Positions 54,533 through 64,000 of a stretch of 64,000 nucleotides of DNA are shown here, in pieces. Below the pieces are notes generated by a model. The model saw only the letters and a list, made by a program, of their open reading frames with translations, searched no databases and had not been told where the DNA came from. Position numbers and translations under genes: made by a program. Source of the DNA: an uncultured SAR86 cluster bacterium (GTDB taxonomy: Bacteria; Pseudomonadota; Gammaproteobacteria; Magnimaribacterales; AG-339-G14). Position 1 is the first letter of the stretch. Each line of letters opens with the position of its first letter. Location: assembly GCA_902562135.1 (NCBI GenBank), contig CACESE010000001.1, positions 30,181 through 94,180 on the forward strand, in the 5' to 3' direction.

Positions 54533-54898
54533 CTAATCTTTTTGCTCATCAAATGGGCATTTATAAACATCAATATAAACTCCCGCTGCATCCAGCTGAT
54601 AACCATCTTTATACTCTTGTGATGAATATATATCTCTTATGACAATAGCATTGCCTCCTGCTATGTGAACTTGGTCTTTCAAAACACGTAATGCGTTTGA
54701 AGTTGCAAAAGAGTTATTCCAACCGCTCTCTCTTTTTTCAGTATCATAAAGATAAACACAATTCAGACTCTTGACTTGAGAACGATCAATCGTCATTACA
54801 TGATGATTATCAGAGTATATTGATGGATCAAGAGATTCACACGCGACAATTAAGGAAAAAAAAAGAATGAGTGTTAGTCTGTTCATCAAATATATCAC
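54533..54898 (-). CDS. Small lipoprotein, DUF4156-like
   Basis: 121 aa. Lipobox LIVAC in the signal peptide; the start is the ATG at 54898 or at 54886. The central block (NALRVLKDQVHIAGGNAIVIRDI) resembles the DUF4156 pattern. Confidence 0.55.
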   Translation of the reverse strand: MIYLMNRLTLILFFSLIVACESLDPSIYSDNHHVMTIDRSQVKSLNCVYLYDTEKRESGWNNSFATSNALRVLKDQVHIAGGNAIVIRDIYSSQEYKDGYQLDAAGVYIDVYKCPFDEQKD

Positions 54899-55145: not shown

Positions 55146-57305
55146 ATGAAAAAAATATTTTTGTCTAGCTTGCTAGTAGCAAGTGGAATTTTAGTTTCAG
55201 GTGCCTTGATTGCGCAGGAAGAAGAACTAGTTGTGAAAGGTAACGTTCTTTACTCTGATCAAGTCAACGCACTTAAAACTCCAGTGCCAGTAATAAACGT
55301 ACCAGTATCTGTATCTATTATCACTGACGATGAAATTGCTAGACAAGGTTTTGATCAACTAGGGGATGTAGTTAGATATACACCCGGTGTGAGTACTTCT
55401 CAAGGAGAGGGCCACAGAGATGCAATCGTTTTCCGCGGTAACAGATCGACAGCTGACTTTTTCCAAGATGGTGTTAGAGACGACGTTCAATACTATCGTT
55501 CTCTTTATAATGTAGAGCAAGTAGAGATCTTAAGAGGTCCTAATGCTTTATTATTTGGAAGAGGTGGAACTGGTGGAGTAATCAACAGAGTTTCTAAAAA
55601 AGGTGTCCTGGGAGAAACTTTTGGCTCATTTTCAATCGGCTCAAACACTTTCGGCGCTTATGATTTTGTTGCGGATTACAACATTTCGATTAATGAAGAT
55701 AGGTCTTTGAGAATTATGGCTCATCGTGATTATCTTAACAATCACAGGTCTTACTATGACGGAGATCGAGCAGGATTTAATCCAACAGTGAAAATTAAAA
55801 TGAGTGATAACACTATGTTAGATGTTTCTTATGAATATGCTGATCACGAAAGATTTATTGACCGAGGCATACCTACAGGTTCTAATGGAGAGCCAGTAGA
55901 GGCGTTGGCTGATATCGTTTTTGGACACCCAGATCTAAATACCCAAACCTTAACTGCTGATATTTTAAGAGCTACCATTACTAGAGACATCTCAGAGACT
56001 TCAAAAGCTATTTTTTCTATCACTAATAATGAATTTGAAAAAATGTATCAAAACCTTTACGTCGCTGGTTATAGTGCAACACTTGAAGAAGTTGCTTTAG
56101 ATGGATATTTAGATCCTACTACAAGAGATAATTTAATTATTTCAGCTAATTTTGTAAACGAATTTGAAATAGGCTCTGCCACGCATACCATTTTATTCGG
56201 TATTGAAGTGGTTGATACCGACAACAAAAACTTCCGATACAACACTAACTTCACAAATGCTGGAGCTTTGCCTTTAGCTAATGACGGAACTGGTATATAC
56301 GCGGCAGGTAGTTCGCAAGCAGGTAAAAGTGATAGGGAAACTTTTTCGATTGCTGACATGAGAGCTGGTATCTTTAATAGAGATGAGGCTGGTGCAGCTG
56401 TTACGTTAGATTTCACTGAGAAACTAAACAACATTACTACTACTGAATTTGAAGTTACTTCTTTCTTCCTTCAAGACCAAATAGATGTATCTGACAACTT
56501 GAAGCTCCTTATTGGCGCAAGATTCGACGACTACGAAATCACTGTAGTTAATCTTAAGCCTGGTTCTGAAGCTACTGTTACCAAAGGAGAGAATTTAACA
56601 TCACCCAGAGCAGGTATTATCTTCAAACCTCAGGACAATGTTTCAATTTATGCAAGTTACAGTAACACCTTTGCACCTGTAGCTGGAGAGCAATATAAAG
56701 CTATGTCAAACAGTCTTGGACCTATAGGCTCATTGAATGAGGTCTTAGATGCCAGTGAAACCGAAAATGCTGAGATAGGTCTGAAATGGGCTATTTCTGA
56801 TGAGTTATTTTTAACTGCTGCATACTTTGATGCAGAAAGAACTGCTATGACTGCCGTTACAGTTAATAATGTTGCTGAACAACAAGAAGTTGTTAATCAA
56901 AACGTAGATGGTATAGAAATTGAACTAGCAGGAAGAATTTCAGATCAACTTGAACTGACGATGAGTTATGCTGATTTTGAAGGTGATAATGTTGCTCAGA
57001 ATAAAGAAATTCCAGATTATCAATTTTCTGCATTCGCCAATTATCAGGTTAATGATAAATTCGGTATTGGATTTGGCCTAACTTCTCAAGGCGATCAGCA
57101 AATTGGAAGTGGGGCTACTCCTTATTTACCGAGTTTCACTAGAGTTGATGTAGCGGCATATTATCAAATTGCCGACGATTTAATGTTGCAAATGAATATA
57201 GAAAACCTAACAGATGAAACGTATTTCCCTCACTCACACTCAACACACCAAGCGTCTGTTGGAGAAGAGGTTAATGCTAATTTCTCAATTAGGAGGACTT
57301 TCTAA
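55146..57305 (+). CDS. TonB-dependent outer-membrane receptor (siderophore-type, Fiu/CirA-like)
   Basis: 719 aa. Signal peptide, a TonB-box-like EELVVKG, a plug domain (VEILRGPNALLFGRGGTGGVINRVSK), a long beta-barrel, and a terminal aromatic residue (SIRRTF). No FRAP/NPNL heme-receptor motifs seen. Confidence 0.9.
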   Translation: MKKIFLSSLLVASGILVSGALIAQEEELVVKGNVLYSDQVNALKTPVPVINVPVSVSIITDDEIARQGFDQLGDVVRYTPGVSTSQGEGHRDAIVFRGNRSTADFFQDGVRDDVQYYRSLYNVEQVEILRGPNALLFGRGGTGGVINRVSKKGVLGETFGSFSIGSNTFGAYDFVADYNISINEDRSLRIMAHRDYLNNHRSYYDGDRAGFNPTVKIKMSDNTMLDVSYEYADHERFIDRGIPTGSNGEPVEALADIVFGHPDLNTQTLTADILRATITRDISETSKAIFSITNNEFEKMYQNLYVAGYSATLEEVALDGYLDPTTRDNLIISANFVNEFEIGSATHTILFGIEVVDTDNKNFRYNTNFTNAGALPLANDGTGIYAAGSSQAGKSDRETFSIADMRAGIFNRDEAGAAVTLDFTEKLNNITTTEFEVTSFFLQDQIDVSDNLKLLIGARFDDYEITVVNLKPGSEATVTKGENLTSPRAGIIFKPQDNVSIYASYSNTFAPVAGEQYKAMSNSLGPIGSLNEVLDASETENAEIGLKWAISDELFLTAAYFDAERTAMTAVTVNNVAEQQEVVNQNVDGIEIELAGRISDQLELTMSYADFEGDNVAQNKEIPDYQFSAFANYQVNDKFGIGFGLTSQGDQQIGSGATPYLPSFTRVDVAAYYQIADDLMLQMNIENLTDETYFPHSHSTHQASVGEEVNANFSIRRTF

Positions 57306-57440: not shown

Positions 57441-58694
57441 TTAATAAATTTTAGAAACTTTCTTAATCTCTTTACGAGTAACTTTTTCAGCTCTCTTTAA
57501 ACCTAAATCATTCCAAACCTTATCAAGAGATTCGACAAAGCTCTTAACATCGACAGACGAGTGCTTGGGAGTAATGGTCACTCTGAACCTTTCATCGCCT
57601 TTTGGAACAGTTGGGTAAAATATTGGCTGAATATAAATTCCGTGTTCATTTATCAGAGTGTTAGCTGCTTTTTTACAAAGCTCCGGCTCATAAAGATGGA
57701 TGGGGATTATGTGACTGTCGTTCTTTAAAAAAGGTATGTTGTAATCCGTTAAACCTTCTCTGATTAAATCTGAATTAACTTTTATATTTTCTCTTAAAAT
57801 GTCAGCTCTTTTTGCAATTTGAATAGCTTGTATAGATGCCGCCGCAATACTTGGGTTTGCTGAAGAAGTAAATATAAAACCTGGAGCAAAACTTCTTATA
57901 AAATCAATAACGTCCTTGTTTGCTGCAACGTAACCACCCATTTGCCCAAAAGCTTTTGAAAGGGTTCCATTAATGATATCAATCTCATCAGAAACATTTA
58001 ATTCTGCCGCAATTCCTCTTCCTTCTGGGCCATATAAACCAACTGAATGGACCTCATCCAAATATGTTAAAGCGTTATATTTTTTTGCAAGCTGAACAAT
58101 TTTCTTTATAGGTGAACGAAGACCTTCCATCGAATAGAGGGATTCGAAAACTATTAACTTTGGCGTATTTGCATTGGATGTTTTGAGCAGTTCTTCAAGG
58201 TGTTCAACATCATTGTGCTTGAAGACATGAGTTTTTACATTCGCATTTTTTATTCCTTGAATCATGGAAGCATGATTAAGTTCGTCAGAATAAACTTCGC
58301 AACCTTCAAGCTTCTTACATAATGTCCATAGAGTTGATTGGTTTGCCGTGTAAGCAGAGGGAAATAATAAGCTGGCTTCTTTATTGTGCAATTCAGCAAG
58401 ATCATTCTCAAGATCGGCATGATAAGAGGATGTACCTGAAATATTTCTGGTTCCTCCAGATCCCGTTCCTAATTCCTTGATTACCTTTATTGATTCTAAG
58501 ATCACAACAGGATGTTGACTTAGATTCAAATAGTCATTGCTGCACCAAACTTCAACAGCCCTCTCTTTGCCTTCAAAACGTTCGGTGGCTTTAGGGAAGT
58601 TAACATGGTTCCTATTGATCTCTCTAAATTTTCTATAAAGACCTTGGGATTTAAGTGAGGTTAATTCGTCAGCAAAGTATTTTTTATAATTCAT
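57441..58694 (-). CDS. hemA: 5-aminolevulinate synthase (C4/Shemin pathway; alpha-oxoamine synthase family)
   Basis: 417 aa. ALAS-specific blocks [52 protein letters not shown] and [10 protein letters not shown] (PLP lysine K247, codon 57956-57954). Collinear with my recollection of Rhodobacter and animal ALAS, and distinct from the BioF/KBL patterns. Confidence 0.9.
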
Positions 58695-58791: not shown

Positions 58792-60285
58792 TTGAAAACA
58801 TTAAGAATCATTTCAAGAAAAAGTCTGTTGGCGCAAGTTCAGGCACAAATTGTGGCTGATAAGATTAAAAACAAATTTGAAGACATTCAGATAGAGTTTG
58901 TTACAAAAGAAACATCTGGAGATATTGATTTAACTACACCTTTACATCAAATGCCCGATGCAGGTGTTTTTACAAATGACATAAGACAAGAACTTTTAAG
59001 TAATAATGCAGATTTGGCAGTTCATTCTTGGAAAGACTTGCCCGTAGAACTCTTGGAAGGAACAGAAATTATAACCACCTTAAAAAGAGCTGATTCACGA
59101 GACCTTCTTATTTTTAAAAAAAAATCTTTGGGAAAGCAAACTATAAAACTTTTAACTTCTTCTCCTAGGAGAAAAGAAAACTTATCTAATTTTTTACCCA
59201 ACGCACTTCCTTGGATTCCTTCAGATATAAAATTTGTCGATGTTAGGGGGAATATTCAAACGAGGCTTTCAAAACTTTTTGAGTCTGAAAAAGATGGTTT
59301 AGTCATCGCATTTGCTGCAATGAAAAGACTTTTGGCCTCTTCTAAATTTTTTAAAGAAGAATCTAATCTTTTAGAGCTATTAAAAGAATCAAAATGGATG
59401 TTACTACCTTTATCAGAAAATCCAGCAGCACCAGCTCAAGGCGCGCTAGCATTAGAAATATCGTCAAAAAATCATGACTTAAAAAATCTTTTAAAGAATA
59501 TAGGAGATGAAGAAACTTTTAATTTAGTAATTAAAGAAAGGGAAATTTTAAAAAAATACGGTGGTGGCTGCCACCAAAAAATTGGAGTGAGCATAATAAA
59601 CTCAACGAAAGGCCAAATTTTACATATAAAAGGCGAAACAGAAGAAGGTGAGAAAATTTCTAAATCATCATTTGAACCACTAGAATCATATAAAAATAAA
59701 CTGAAAGAAGTTAAAAATTATTTCCCTTCTAGTAAAGAGTCGTCACAAATTTTTAATAGAGTGTCTATTTCAAAAGCAGAACAAAAAGTTTCTGGAATTA
59801 AAAATTCTGGAATTTATGTTAGTAGAGGAAATGTTATTGAGAATATTAATTCAATTTCTAATACAAATTTGGTATGGACTAGTGGAGTTGAGACTTGGTT
59901 AAAACTAGCATCAAAGGGAATTTGGGTTAATGGAACTTCTGATAGTTTGGGAGAAAACGAAAGTCCGCCTTTAGGGCTTTATAAAGACACTAAGTGGTAT
60001 AAATTATCGCATTTAGATGCTCATGAAGAAAAACTGGAATTGATATCTACTTATAAATTAGTGTCAAATGAATTGCCGAAAGATATTGAAAAAAATAGCC
60101 ATTATTATTGGATGAGCTCAAGTTCTTTCAAATTTATTTTTGAAAAATTTCCTTCAATAGAAAACGCTAATCATTCCTGTGGGTTGGGTAAAACGTTTGA
60201 TGAGATCAACCAAATTATTCCAGGAAAAGTTTATCCTTATCAGAATTATAAAGATTGGCTAGATAAAATTAAAAGAGCAAAGTAA
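58792..60285 (+). CDS. hemC: Porphobilinogen deaminase (HemC) with a ~190-aa C-terminal extension; the extension is a candidate minimal uroporphyrinogen-III synthase (HemD-like) module
   Basis: 497 aa with a TTG start. HemC residues are present: RIISRKSLLA (Arg9), HSWKDLP, SSPRR, RGNIQTRL, and the cofactor Cys in GGGCHQKIG (C260). Residues ~300-497 have no HemC counterpart. They carry HEM4-like strings: IYVSRGN, LVWTSGVETWLKL, YYWMSSSSFKFIFEKF and CGLGKTFDEI. Confidence 0.85.
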   Translation: MKTLRIISRKSLLAQVQAQIVADKIKNKFEDIQIEFVTKETSGDIDLTTPLHQMPDAGVFTNDIRQELLSNNADLAVHSWKDLPVELLEGTEIITTLKRADSRDLLIFKKKSLGKQTIKLLTSSPRRKENLSNFLPNALPWIPSDIKFVDVRGNIQTRLSKLFESEKDGLVIAFAAMKRLLASSKFFKEESNLLELLKESKWMLLPLSENPAAPAQGALALEISSKNHDLKNLLKNIGDEETFNLVIKEREILKKYGGGCHQKIGVSIINSTKGQILHIKGETEEGEKISKSSFEPLESYKNKLKEVKNYFPSSKESSQIFNRVSISKAEQKVSGIKNSGIYVSRGNVIENINSISNTNLVWTSGVETWLKLASKGIWVNGTSDSLGENESPPLGLYKDTKWYKLSHLDAHEEKLELISTYKLVSNELPKDIEKNSHYYWMSSSSFKFIFEKFPSIENANHSCGLGKTFDEINQIIPGKVYPYQNYKDWLDKIKRAK

Positions 60286-60306: not shown

Positions 60307-61302
60307 ATGAAGAGTTTATTAAGAAAATTTCCCAGTACTAGACTGAGAAGAAATAGGTCAAAAAATAGCTTGAGATCGATTTTGGCCGAATCAAAAATCA
60401 CCGTTGATGATTTGATTCAGCCTATTTTTATCAAAGAAAATTTATCTGGCTATGAGCCAATCCAATCTATGCCAGGTATCAACAGATTAGGAGCAAATGT
60501 TTTAGAAGCAGAATTAAGAAATATTATCGATACTGGTATTAAAGCAGTTGCTTTATTTCCAGTGATCGAAGAGGAAAAAAAGGATTCAGCAGGAACAGAA
60601 GCACTTAATCAAGATAATTTTTTAAATGTTGAAATATCAAAAATTAAAGACCTATTTCCTGAATTAATAATCATTGCTGACGTCGCTTTAGACCCCTATA
60701 CAGATCATGGCCACGATGGAGTTTTAAATAAAGTTGGAGATGTTGATAATGATCTAAGTCTTGATGTTCTAAAGAATCAGGCTTTATCTCTTGCGAAAGC
60801 AGGAGCCGATGTAATTGCTCCCTCAGATATGATGGATGGACGAATTAAAGTTATCAGAGATGCTTTAGAGAAAAATAACTTCAAAGACACGGTAATTCTT
60901 TCTTATGCAGCAAAATATAGTTCAAAATTTTATGGACCATTTAAAGACGCAGTAGAATCTGCAAAATTCTTTGGAAATAAAAATAAAGACACTTATCAAA
61001 TGTCCCCTGCAAATAAAAATGAAGCTCTACAAGAAGTTGCTATGGATATAAATGAAGGCGCAGATATAGTAATGGTCAAACCAGGCATGCCATACCTCGA
61101 TATTGTTTCTTCGGTGAAAGAAACCTTTAAAGTTCCTACTTTTGTTTATCAGGTCAGTGGGGAATATTCTATGCTTAAAGGAGCTATTGACAACGGTTGG
61201 CTTTCAGAAGAAGTGATGAAAGAATCTATTTTATCTTTTAAAAGAGCTGGAGCTGATTGTATTTTGACCTATGCTGCACTAGAAGTAGCGAAAGAATTAT
61301 AA
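60307..61302 (+). CDS. hemB: Porphobilinogen synthase (ALA dehydratase), Asp-rich Zn-independent type
   Basis: 331 aa. Metal-site segment DVALDPYTDHGHDG (60679-60720) has Asp where Zn enzymes have Cys. Schiff-base lysine regions (YAAKYSS, MVKPGMPYLD) are present. Confidence 0.94.
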   Translation: MKSLLRKFPSTRLRRNRSKNSLRSILAESKITVDDLIQPIFIKENLSGYEPIQSMPGINRLGANVLEAELRNIIDTGIKAVALFPVIEEEKKDSAGTEALNQDNFLNVEISKIKDLFPELIIIADVALDPYTDHGHDGVLNKVGDVDNDLSLDVLKNQALSLAKAGADVIAPSDMMDGRIKVIRDALEKNNFKDTVILSYAAKYSSKFYGPFKDAVESAKFFGNKNKDTYQMSPANKNEALQEVAMDINEGADIVMVKPGMPYLDIVSSVKETFKVPTFVYQVSGEYSMLKGAIDNGWLSEEVMKESILSFKRAGADCILTYAALEVAKEL

Positions 61303-61305
61303 AAA

Positions 61306-62328
61306 ATGCCCAATCAAAAGTTTCTCAATGCGCTAGCAAACGTTCCTCAATCTACCCCTCCGATTTGGTTTATGAGGCAAGCTGGAAGATACCACAGTCA
61401 TTATCAAAATTTAAAAACCAAAAATTCTTTTGAGGAACTTTGTAAATCACCAACTTTGGCTGCAGAAACAGCTATGGGACCCATAAATTCTTTTGATTTT
61501 GATGTTGCTATCCTCTTTAGTGATATTTTGTTTCCTTTAGAAAGTTTAGGAATGGATTTAACATATTCTCCTGGGCCGAAATTTGGAAAATTATTGACCG
61601 AGGTAAATTTTAAAGAAGTATTTAAAAATAATTTTGATATTAACTCTTTGTCTTTCCAGGGAGAAGCAATAGAAAGAACTCTTGAAGTTTTACCAAAGGA
61701 TAAATCATTTATCGGGTTTGTCGGTGGCCCTTTTACTTTACTTGTTTACTCGATGGGACTTAATAAAAGTGAGAAAACTTTAAATTTAACAGATTTCCAA
61801 ATTGAAATTCTTAAGGATTTTCTTTTTCCGGTAATTTCTGAAAATATAACCATGCAACTTGAAGCTGGAGCAGAAATTGTGATGATTTTCGATTCTTCTG
61901 CTCATTTTTTACAACAAAAAAGCTTTTTAAAATACTTAGACATGATGCATGAGCAAATTTTTTCAAAATTTGAAAAAAGGATTGGATATTATGCTAGAGA
62001 AGGGATTGATTACGATTCGATAATTTCAGTTAACAAATTAAAACAGACATCTCTCGCTGGGCTAGGTATCGACTCAAATGAATCTTTGTCTAAATATTTT
62101 AAGCTATCAAGAGATTATTTTATTCAGGGAAATTTTGACGAAAAATTAATGCTTTTATCAAATACTTCTATGAAATTAGAATTAGAAAAATTTATCAAGT
62201 CTATAGAGAATTTTAGTGAAAAAGAGAGAGCAGGGTGGATCTGTGGTTTAGGCCATGGAATTTTAAAAGAAACTCCAGAAGAAAATGTGCAAACTTTTGT
62301 AAGAATGATAAGGGAGTCTTTTAAATGA
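61306..62328 (+). CDS. hemE: Uroporphyrinogen decarboxylase
   Basis: 340 aa. N-terminal signature PPIWFMRQAGRY, and GFVGGPFTL. Confidence 0.92.
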   Translation: MPNQKFLNALANVPQSTPPIWFMRQAGRYHSHYQNLKTKNSFEELCKSPTLAAETAMGPINSFDFDVAILFSDILFPLESLGMDLTYSPGPKFGKLLTEVNFKEVFKNNFDINSLSFQGEAIERTLEVLPKDKSFIGFVGGPFTLLVYSMGLNKSEKTLNLTDFQIEILKDFLFPVISENITMQLEAGAEIVMIFDSSAHFLQQKSFLKYLDMMHEQIFSKFEKRIGYYAREGIDYDSIISVNKLKQTSLAGLGIDSNESLSKYFKLSRDYFIQGNFDEKLMLLSNTSMKLELEKFIKSIENFSEKERAGWICGLGHGILKETPEENVQTFVRMIRESFK

Positions 62329-63332
62329 GTTTTCTCGGCGAAAAAAATTTTTCTCACAAAGATCAAGAAAATATAGGGATACTTATATGTAATTTAGGTA
62401 CCCCAGACAGTTATTCTGTCAAAGACGTCAGGGCTTTTTTAAGAGAGTTTTTATCGGATAGTAGAGTAATAGAAATACCTAAAATTGTTTGGTGGTTTAT
62501 TCTAAATTTATTTATTTTAACCTTCAGGCCTTTTAGCTCATCTAAGTTGTACAAATCTGTTTGGACTGATGAAGGGTCTCCTCTAATGGTTTATTCAAAA
62601 AAATTAATTGATAGATTAGATGAAAAGCTTCCCGAAAAATACGAAGTTGCACTGGGTATGAGGTATGGTAACCCAAGCATTAAAACTGCATTAAAAAAAC
62701 TCAAAGATAGAAACTGTAGAAAAATCTTAGTTTTACCATTATTCCCTCAGTACTCTGCTACAACTTCCGGAAGTATTTTTGACAAAGTCTCAGAAGAGAT
62801 TAGAAATTGGAGATGGGTGCCTAGTTTAATTTTTATCAATTCTTATCATGATGATGAAAATTTTATTTCCGCTATATCAAACTCGTTAAGACCAAAACTC
62901 GAGTCTGAAAAACCTGACAAGGTAGTTTTTACTTATCATGGAATACCTAAAAATTATTTTGACCAGGGCGATCCCTATCACTGCCTTTGCCAAAAAACAA
63001 CAAGATTAGTTTGTGAGAATTTAAAACTTGAAGAAAAAAAAAGTATCACAACATTTCAATCAAGATTGGGAAATGCTGAATGGTTAAAACCATATACCAG
63101 CGAGGTTATGAAAAGTTTACCTAAAGAAGGCTGTAAAAATATTATGGTTATCGCTCCAGGTTTTAGTGTCGATTGCCTAGAAACAATAGAAGAAATAGAT
63201 GAAGAAAATAAGGAATATTTTTTAAATTCTGGAGGAGCAAAATTCACTTATGTTGAGTGTTTAAACGACACTGATCATCACGTAAATTTTTTAAAGGAAT
63301 TTATAGAAAAGAAAATTTCTGTATGGAAATAA
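62325..63332 (+). CDS. hemH: Ferrochelatase
   Basis: 335 aa. ILICNLGTPDS, LPLFPQYSATT, FTYHGIP and DCLETIEEI motifs. ATGA overlap with hemE. Confidence 0.93.
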   Translation: MSFLGEKNFSHKDQENIGILICNLGTPDSYSVKDVRAFLREFLSDSRVIEIPKIVWWFILNLFILTFRPFSSSKLYKSVWTDEGSPLMVYSKKLIDRLDEKLPEKYEVALGMRYGNPSIKTALKKLKDRNCRKILVLPLFPQYSATTSGSIFDKVSEEIRNWRWVPSLIFINSYHDDENFISAISNSLRPKLESEKPDKVVFTYHGIPKNYFDQGDPYHCLCQKTTRLVCENLKLEEKKSITTFQSRLGNAEWLKPYTSEVMKSLPKEGCKNIMVIAPGFSVDCLETIEEIDEENKEYFLNSGGAKFTYVECLNDTDHHVNFLKEFIEKKISVWK

Positions 63333-64000
63333 AAGACTTAGAAGATAAGAAAAAAAAGGCTAGTGAATGGTTTCGTACTCTTCGTGATAAATTTTGTAAA
63401 ACTTTTGAAAGTCTGGATTCAAAAAAATTTTCTAGAAAGCTTTGGGAGCATAAAGGAGAAGGTGGTGGCGAGATAAGCATCATGAGAGGAGATGTTTTTG
63501 AAAAAGTTGGAGTTAATATCTCAACAGTCTCCGGAGAATTTTCTGAAGATTATCGAACTCAAGTAAAAGGGACCGAAGGTTCGCCAAATTATTGGGCCTC
63601 AGGGATTAGTTTAGTAGCACATATGCAATCTCCAAAAATTCCTGCTTTTCATTTCAATACTCGTTTTCTTGTAACACAAGATTCTTGGTTTGGCGGAGGT
63701 ACTGATATGACTCCTACACTTGAAGATAGAAAGGATAAAAGATATTTTCATGACAGATTAGAGGCTGCATGTAATAAGCACGATGCAAACTATTACAAAG
63801 AATTTAAAAAAAATTGTGATGAATATTTTTATTTGCCGCATCGAGAGGAACCAAGAGGAGTGGGAGGAATTTTTTTTGATCACTTAAACTCTGGAAAATG
63901 GGAAGAAGATTTTAATTTTGTAAAGGAAGTGGGTTTAGAAACTCTAAATATAATTACAGAAATTGTGACTGCTAAAAAAGATCTTTCTTGGACAAGAGAA
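63323..64000 (+). CDS. hemF: Oxygen-dependent coproporphyrinogen-III oxidase; the C-terminus is cut off by the right window edge, 226 codons present
   Basis: Not in the ORF track because it is open at the window end. My translation from the ATG at 63323 reads MEIKDLEDKKKKASEWFRTLRDKFCKTFESLD...GGGEISIMRGDVFEKVGVNISTVSGEF...SGISLVAHMQSPKIPAFHFNTRF...WFGGGTDMTP...REEPRGVGGIFFD, which are HemF hallmarks. It overlaps hemH by 10 nt. Confidence 0.9.
   Translation, partial: MEIKDLEDKKKKASEWFRTLRDKFCKTFESLDSKKFSRKLWEHKGEGGGEISIMRGDVFEKVGVNISTVSGEFSEDYRTQVKGTEGSPNYWASGISLVAHMQSPKIPAFHFNTRFLVTQDSWFGGGTDMTPTLEDRKDKRYFHDRLEAACNKHDANYYKEFKKNCDEYFYLPHREEPRGVGGIFFDHLNSGKWEEDFNFVKEVGLETLNIITEIVTAKKDLSWTRE

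Follow-up and report, generated by a model that had tools for sequence, protein, structure and literature searches.

A SAR86 gene predicted to encode a bifunctional HemC/D of the Leptospira type, with a compact uroporphyrinogen-III synthase module

Results

A single open reading frame joins HemC to a long C-terminal tail

We analyzed hemC/D, a heme biosynthesis gene within a 64,000-nucleotide stretch of DNA from an uncultured SAR86 cluster bacterium (contig CACESE010000001.1, positions 30,181 to 94,180; hereafter the window, in whose numbering coordinates are given). A first-pass annotation, made without database searches, had pointed out a 497-aa open reading frame (ORF) at 58792–60285 and proposed that it fuses hydroxymethylbilane synthase (HemC) to an unusually short uroporphyrinogen-III synthase (UROS, or HemD). 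The ORF is present as described there, and an exact-sequence look-up of the 497-aa protein returned no database record. The gene and its parts are as follows.

58792..60285, + strand: hemC/D, 497 aa, TTG start; a single ORF comprising hydroxymethylbilane synthase and a compact UROS-like module
58801..59484, + strand: HemC domains 1-2, residues 4-231, dipyrromethane-cofactor-binding, with the catalytic Arg/Asp residues (Pfam Porphobil_deam, TIGR00212)
59485..59679, + strand: truncated HemC domain 3, residues 232-296; a helix, the C260 cofactor loop and three beta-strands, the canonical C-terminal half being gone
59680..59742, + strand: linker, residues 297-317, with a conserved P312; length and sequence vary in alignments of the family
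59743..60282, + strand: UROS-like module, residues 318-497 (AlphaFold tail model, Foldseek, invariant residues, ratio of non-synonymous to synonymous substitution rates (dN/dS))

Residues 1–296 form a hydroxymethylbilane synthase whose catalytic core is intact. Pfam Porphobil_deam covers residues 4–231 (E 2.6e-51; 174.6 bits against a cutoff of 22.1), and the 497-aa protein scores 204.1 bits with the NCBIfam model TIGR00212 (hemC), for which the cutoff is 164. None of the classical HemC active-site residues is lost in an alignment with E. coli HemC: R11, K83-D84, R131-R132, R149, R155, R176, Q198 and C242 of the E. coli enzyme pair with R9, K81-D82, R126-R127, R152, R158, R179, Q216 and C260 of the SAR86 protein, respectively. 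This agrees with the earlier claim that all catalytic arginines and the dipyrromethane cysteine are in place; the latter, C260 (codon 59569–59571), lies in the motif GGGCHQ. With the exception of Q216, the active-site residues are at least 90% conserved among 106 relatives with 23–57% overall identity to the SAR86 protein. In an AlphaFold model of the full-length protein (predicted local distance difference test (pLDDT) 90.6, predicted template modelling score (pTM) 0.90), the first ~300 residues matched porphobilinogen deaminase (PBGD) structures in Foldseek (TMt 0.67–0.80). Compared with E. coli HemC, this part of the protein also carries an insertion of ~14–18 residues (FFKEESNLLELLKESKW; residues ~182–200, window 59335–59390) that is helical in the model and kept across the fusion family, Leptospira included. 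The insertion may be in contact with the UROS module.

The third HemC domain is cut short. Alignments to E. coli HemC and to HemC structures in the Protein Data Bank (PDB) end at residue 265, five residues past the cysteine, and domain 3 of the SAR86 protein ends ~36 aa past C260, whereas 71 residues follow the cysteine in E. coli HemC. The SAR86 protein lacks a complete C-terminal domain 3 as defined by Pfam Porphobil_deamC, which gave a sub-threshold match of residues 245–281 to profile positions 3–37 of 74 (E 0.083). The same profile is weak or absent family-wide, with matches in 41 of the 95 members scanned and a best E of 6.6e-4. In the full-length model, only three beta-strands follow C260, the last of which ends at residue 296 and gives way to the linker. 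Because the alignments stop, the profile match is partial and weak throughout the family, and the model has three strands, we conclude that domain 3 is truly shortened, at the 35–40 aa past the cysteine that had been noted from the sequence.

The tail is predicted to adopt a UROS fold

We modeled the tail separately with template-free AlphaFold2 (residues 289–497, alignment of 24 sequences), obtaining a model with a pLDDT of 85.3 and a pTM of 0.76 whose secondary structure agrees with that of the full-length model. When this model was compared with the PDB by Foldseek, the top nine matches were all uroporphyrinogen-III synthases, with E values from 4.4e-6 to 3.5e-4 and a probability of 1.00, and the tenth match had an E of 1.7e-2. 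The UROS matches included structures from Shewanella (3MW8), Thermus (3D8T, 3D8R, 3D8S, 1WD7 and 1WCX) and human (1JR2). Structure prediction, one of the checks that the first-pass annotation had proposed, therefore points with good confidence to a two-domain UROS fold.

The conserved residues of the tail sit in loops that lead from a strand to a helix. From N- to C-terminus, these are W362-T-S-G365, followed by helix 366–374; N380-G-T-S-D-S-L-G-E388; K404 and H407 at the end of strand 402–407; T420-Y421 on the long strand 416–425 (Y421 codon 60052–60054); W440-M-S442...F446, followed by helix 443–452; and H461-x-C-G464-x-G466-x-T468, followed by helix 467–475 (H461 codon 60172–60174). Five residues, G365, G387, Y421, W440 and H461, are invariant in the 106 sequences. 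The canonical UROS layout consists of a strand-[TS]S-helix and a strand-GxxT-helix, present twice, and the tail likewise contains this pair of units twice. The tail is under purifying selection, with a dN/dS of 0.12–0.17 compared with 0.08 for the HemC part.

In a weak, non-significant hhalign alignment (probability 0.16%), Y421 falls opposite Y149 of E. coli HemD, the "CYQR" tyrosine; a conserved tyrosine is the one residue to which a part in UROS catalysis has so far been ascribed (PMC7242693, citing Roessner 2002). From the first strand (IYVSR) to Y421, the SAR86 tail spans 75 residues, as against 140 from ILVTRP to Y149 in E. coli HemD, and 76 residues follow the tyrosine, as against 97. 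These spacings place the shortening mainly in the first helix-strand unit and in the middle lobe, which comprises about three strands and one helix in the models. Residues ~318–497 are strongly inferred to be a compact uroporphyrinogen-III synthase, two-lobed and with a much reduced middle lobe.

The SAR86 protein is collinear with Leptospira HemC/D

The SAR86 protein belongs to an already known family and does not represent a new kind of system. HemC/D of Leptospira (LB011, LIC20009 or LIMLP_17845; Guegan et al. 2003, cited in PMC8698207, PMC11426443 and PMC7567364) is described as a bifunctional HmbS-UroS fusion, that is, hydroxymethylbilane synthase joined to uroporphyrinogen-III synthase (PMC8698207, PMC11426443), and according to PMC8698207 dual activity is reported for the L. 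interrogans enzyme. A 542-aa protein of Leptospira santarosai (P0212), named 'bifunctional porphobilinogen deaminase/uroporphyrinogen synthase' by NCBI, aligns with the SAR86 protein from residue 2 to 493 with 38% identity over 529 columns (E 4e-114), and our tail profile matches its residues 259–523 at E 5.4e-39. The two proteins are therefore collinear. They have in common the HemC core, the truncated domain 3, the linker and the compact C-terminal module with all of the tail motifs, and both receive the NCBIfam label 'hemC' only and no Pfam HEM4 match. The Leptospira protein differs in being 45 aa longer; its insertions lie in the linker and ahead of the first tail strand.

hemC/D takes the place of hemD in heme gene clusters

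The window holds a run of heme genes around hemC/D:

57441..58694, - strand: 5-aminolevulinate synthase (ALAS), first step of the C4 route, divergent from hemC/D (TIGR01821, 545.8 bits against a cutoff of 338.55)
60307..61302, + strand: hemB, porphobilinogen synthase (Pfam ALAD, E 2.8e-130)
61306..62328, + strand: hemE, uroporphyrinogen decarboxylase, the consumer of uroporphyrinogen III (Pfam URO-D, E 1.1e-69)
62325..63332, + strand: hemH, ferrochelatase (Pfam Ferrochelatase, E 4.8e-110)
63323..64000, + strand: hemF, coproporphyrinogen III oxidase, partial, beginning at ATG 63323 and running past the window end (Pfam Coprogen_oxidas, E 3e-66)

In a related locus (L001), the next gene after hemF encodes a Flavodoxin_5 (HemG-type) protein. 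Taken together, the window and L001 provide adjacent genes for seven of the eight steps to protoheme, all but uroporphyrinogen-III synthase. We found no separate hemD in the clusters whose gene content was examined (the window, L001, L067 and L071), and no HEM4 protein among 20 other window ORFs of 184–286 aa, each of which has another confident family assignment. The observation in the first-pass annotation that a near-complete hem cluster here has no separate hemD thus holds for the window cluster and these 20 ORFs.

A scan of one genome per species identified 80 loci encoding the tail; in these, as in the window, hemC/D is part of a hem cluster. In Leptospira, the operon reads hemA-hemC/D-hemB-hemL-HK-RR-hemE-hemN, HK and RR being a histidine kinase and a response regulator (PMC7567364, PMC2266917); it too has no separate hemD, and the same linkage of hem genes to a two-component system occurs in Bdellovibrio (PMC2266917). 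Loci L067 (6179–13572) and L071 (6190–15029), from Bdellovibrionaceae and Pyrinomonadaceae, encode glutamyl-tRNA reductase (GluTR), hemC/D, (hemB), hemL, a histidine kinase, a response regulator, hemE, and hemN or hemH. Given this gene order, the tail stands where hemD is found in the classical hemA-C-D-B-L arrangement (PMC2266917, PMC7567364).

The fusion is conserved across genomes

Wherever a contig end does not interrupt the locus, the tail is immediately preceded by a HemC domain, and 76 of the 80 loci contain an uninterrupted ORF of 459–529 aa. The four exceptions are two pilon-polished long-read contigs with frameshifts and two loci cut by a contig end. Carriers include SAR86 (among them the closed genome of isolate HIMB1674), Alphaproteobacteria of the PS1, OCS116 and Rhodobiaceae groups, Marinimicrobia, Bdellovibrionota and Acidobacteriota. 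The window itself is 96–98% identical to the SAR86 single-cell genome AG-349-F19, and a 98% identical 497-aa protein represents 221 sequences. Against 1.84 billion representative proteins, the tail profile matched 766 clusters at 50% identity with E<=1e-3 and 577 with E<=1e-10; ~70% of the 150 matches listed are roughly 500 aa long with the tail at the C-terminus. The hemC/D family is therefore large and, with Leptospira, is found in at least six phyla.

The tail was seen only fused to HemC. We rejected the candidate stand-alone tails: a 213-aa protein (P0010) derives from a frameshifted long-read contig, and the other short matches inspected begin inside HemC. In L001 (ERZ28548061 contig_9301_pilon), hemC/D is in three pieces and hemB, hemE and a TonB receptor gene are each in two; in L017, also a pilon-polished long-read contig, hemC/D is likewise out of frame. 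Such split genes are the source of false stand-alone tails, P0010 among them, in public protein collections.

Two other database entries are irregular at their ends. In P0027, a chimera ending in ...VELSLIHI, the N-terminus of a membrane transporter (PF02653) is joined to part of hemC/D; P0024 ends in ...VSYTHL.... We take these endings to resemble a translated Nextera adapter (CTGTCTCTTATACACATCT); if so, the contig ends would be chimeric or contaminated with adapter.

Alternative explanations for the long ORF and its tail

A sequencing or assembly frameshift could in principle have merged hemC with a separate downstream gene, an alternative that had been raised along with the fusion itself, and the splitting of the region into several ORFs in L001 and L017 might be taken in its favor. 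These two contigs are themselves faulty, as the frameshifts in hemB, hemE and the TonB receptor gene indicate, whereas 76 of 80 independent genomes, among them single-cell assemblies and the closed genome of an isolate, have the ORF in one piece, and the 98% identical protein of the same length stands for 221 sequences. Because a single ORF is conserved in these genomes across five phyla, we consider a frameshift artefact excluded.

Several results weigh against assigning the tail to UROS. Its TM-scores against UROS structures (TMq) are 0.37–0.56, with no tight match. At ~180 aa, the module falls ~60–80 aa below canonical UROS (240–260 aa). Pfam HEM4 found no match at E<=1 in the SAR86 protein, in the tail alone or in 95 members of the family including Leptospira, so the HEM4 search that had been proposed as a check came back empty for protein and tail alike. 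NCBIfam has no match for the tail, and profile hidden Markov model searches of PDB sequences, made with a first and a more diverse alignment, recovered no UROS. Local hhalign of the 106-sequence tail profile against four gammaproteobacterial HemD proteins (from E. coli, Shewanella and two Pseudomonas) reached only the 0.16% probability given above; global mode gave a meaningless alignment. Among the matches listed in a search for E. coli HemD homologues all were at least 78% identical, a set too narrow for a broad HEM4 profile. The four HEM4-like strings that had first drawn attention to the tail are indeed present, at residues 341, 360, 438 and 463, but no profile method ties them to HEM4. 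The likeness of the tail to UROS, as the model predicts it, is accordingly established at the level of the fold only.

Modest TM-scores are expected of a hinged, two-lobed protein in which one lobe is reduced. The shortness, which the first-pass annotation had remarked on, is a trait of the whole family, whose tails are 160–256 aa long (median 201; 198 in the SAR86 protein). A phmmer search with E. coli HemD likewise fails to detect the Thermus and human UROS structures. UroS has only about seven invariant residues, and an annotated UroS is still lacking in some heme makers (PMC13564367, a 2026 review). Since E. coli HemD misses known UROS structures and UroS is so poorly conserved (PMC13564367), the failed profile searches count for less.

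The tail might instead resemble UROS in fold and be non-catalytic, serving as a cap that replaces the missing HemC domain 3 helices or as a ligand-sensing or regulatory module, with the real UROS unrecognized elsewhere. The tail starts at the very point where domain 3 breaks off, so structural compensation is conceivable; no sequence profile identifies the tail as HEM4, its middle lobe is strongly reduced, and UROS genes are hard enough to detect (PMC13564367) that one could lie unseen elsewhere. We nonetheless consider a non-catalytic tail unlikely, given that dual activity is reported for the Leptospira orthologue (PMC8698207), that the best-conserved residues lie in strand-to-helix loops and the TY motif, which fits a ligand cleft better than a packing surface, and that in five phyla the gene takes the position of hemD within clusters that are complete in other respects. 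That the tail catalyzes some other tetrapyrrole step, such as isomerization or modification of hydroxymethylbilane or uroporphyrinogen, or carries the product to HemE, seems to us less likely still. In its favor are the atypically small size of the module and an invariant set of residues, W362, W369, W378, W440, H407 and H461, outside the few known to be conserved in canonical UROS (PMC13564367), but UROS is exactly the step, and the only one, that the cluster-encoded pathway still requires, UROS proteins are the only significant structural neighbors, and the literature on the Leptospira enzyme treats it as HemC plus HemD.

We therefore favor, with high confidence, the prediction that the SAR86 gene encodes a bifunctional HemC/D of the Leptospira type, on the basis of the fold model, orthology with Leptospira, gene context, conservation and the sequence pattern. 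The HemC-HemD fusion proposed in the first-pass annotation thus gains support from the UROS fold, the conserved single ORF, the hemD slot and the collinearity with the Leptospira protein.

Discussion

A proposed mechanism for the HemC/D fusion

In the mechanism that we propose, the HemC part would convert four porphobilinogens into linear hydroxymethylbilane on the C260-linked dipyrromethane cofactor. The tethered UROS lobes would bind hydroxymethylbilane in their cleft through the loops WTSG, NGxSDSLGE, WMSxSxF and HxCGxGxT, and would close the ring with inversion of ring D via a spiro intermediate, yielding uroporphyrinogen III for the adjacently encoded HemE. Y421 would probably serve as the counterpart of the active-site tyrosine conserved in canonical UROS. 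The fusion would also hold the two activities at a 1:1 ratio and close to one another, so that less spontaneous cyclization of hydroxymethylbilane to the useless isomer I is expected. Direct channeling of hydroxymethylbilane between the active sites is plausible.

A more specific proposal combines several of these features. The tail family may form a distinct, minimal UROS subfamily of ~180 aa, with a middle lobe of ~three strands and one helix, which works only when tethered to HemC, docks on the truncated domain 3 for direct transfer of hydroxymethylbilane, and relies on Y421, H461, W440, S442, G365 and G387, residues absent from canonical UROS. As a combination, this is a tentative proposal that we think will probably fail in one or another of its parts. 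If true, the subfamily would represent the smallest working UROS core and offer a tractable system for asking which UROS residues are important and whether HmbS makes physical contact with UroS.

Relation to other UROS proteins and fusions

Canonical UROS proteins (HEM4, PF02602; for example 1JR2, 1WD7/3D8T, 3MW8 and 4ES6) share with the SAR86 module a two-lobed alpha/beta fold joined by strands, the repeated strand-[TS]S-helix/strand-GxxT-helix units, and perhaps a tyrosine on the strand that leads back to lobe 1 (Y421, placed tentatively opposite E. coli Y149). They differ in their length of 240–260 aa, in standing alone and in matching the HEM4 profile, whereas the SAR86 module is ~180 aa long, fused and without a HEM4 match.

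UROS is also joined to a neighboring pathway enzyme in one polypeptide in the CobA/HemD fusion (uroporphyrinogen-III C-methyltransferase-UROS). There the partner acts after UROS and the HEM4 domain is recognizable, whereas the SAR86 partner acts before UROS and makes its unstable substrate. For Plasmodium falciparum HmbS, both HmbS and UroS activity were claimed for one polypeptide, as they are here. That protein has no extra UROS-like domain and its bifunctionality was refuted experimentally (PMC8698207), whereas the SAR86 protein has a distinct UROS-fold domain of ~200 aa.

Implications for annotation of heme biosynthesis

UROS is the least conserved heme enzyme, and the UROS half of this family is invisible to current profile libraries (Pfam, NCBIfam). 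Because these libraries label the family HemC only, automated reconstruction would score the heme pathway as incomplete for want of hemD, and heme auxotrophy could be wrongly inferred from the missing annotation. The fusion would account for the apparent absence of a hemD gene in heme-making bacteria like this SAR86. The family spans SAR86, among the most abundant surface-ocean bacteria, as well as marine Alphaproteobacteria, Marinimicrobia, Bdellovibrionota, Acidobacteriota and Leptospira. We found no paper treating SAR86 together with heme or hemD, and the SAR86 isolate paper and its supplements make no mention of heme genes. A dedicated tail profile would close the annotation gap, and the compact module would be a natural minimal UROS for mechanistic work.

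Variation among the hem clusters and their neighbors

The clusters that carry hemC/D differ in how they begin the pathway. The Leptospira cluster follows the C5 route, with GluTR and HemL, and also contains the genes of the HemKR two-component system, whereas the SAR86 cluster has ALAS and no two-component genes. L067 and L071 contain a HemKR-like two-component pair inside the hem cluster, as in the Leptospira layout; the ORFs taken as GluTR in these two loci are short (279–308 aa) and match the N-terminal GluTR domain only.

The C4, or Shemin, route through ALAS is usually linked with Alphaproteobacteria. SAR86 is a gammaproteobacterium with ALAS, and the same divergent pair, ALAS on the minus strand and hemC/D on the plus strand, recurs in PS1, OCS116, Rhodobiaceae and Marinimicrobia loci (L002–L070). 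In these marine lineages, hemC/D is joined with an ALAS-based cluster, and the shared pair suggests that the whole hem cluster has moved horizontally among marine plankton.

Within the window, hemF overlaps the end of hemH by 10 nt (63323–63332) and hemE overlaps hemH by 4 nt (62325–62328), consistent with translational coupling in the hem operon. The hem cluster is immediately preceded by a gene for a TonB-dependent receptor (Plug and beta-barrel; 55146–57305, plus strand), beside which lies a 121-aa ORF (54533–54898, minus strand) with no Pfam match. Genes on the flanks of the L001 cluster likewise encode TonB receptors and an FTR1 iron permease, and these neighbors hint that heme synthesis may be linked to the uptake of iron or heme.

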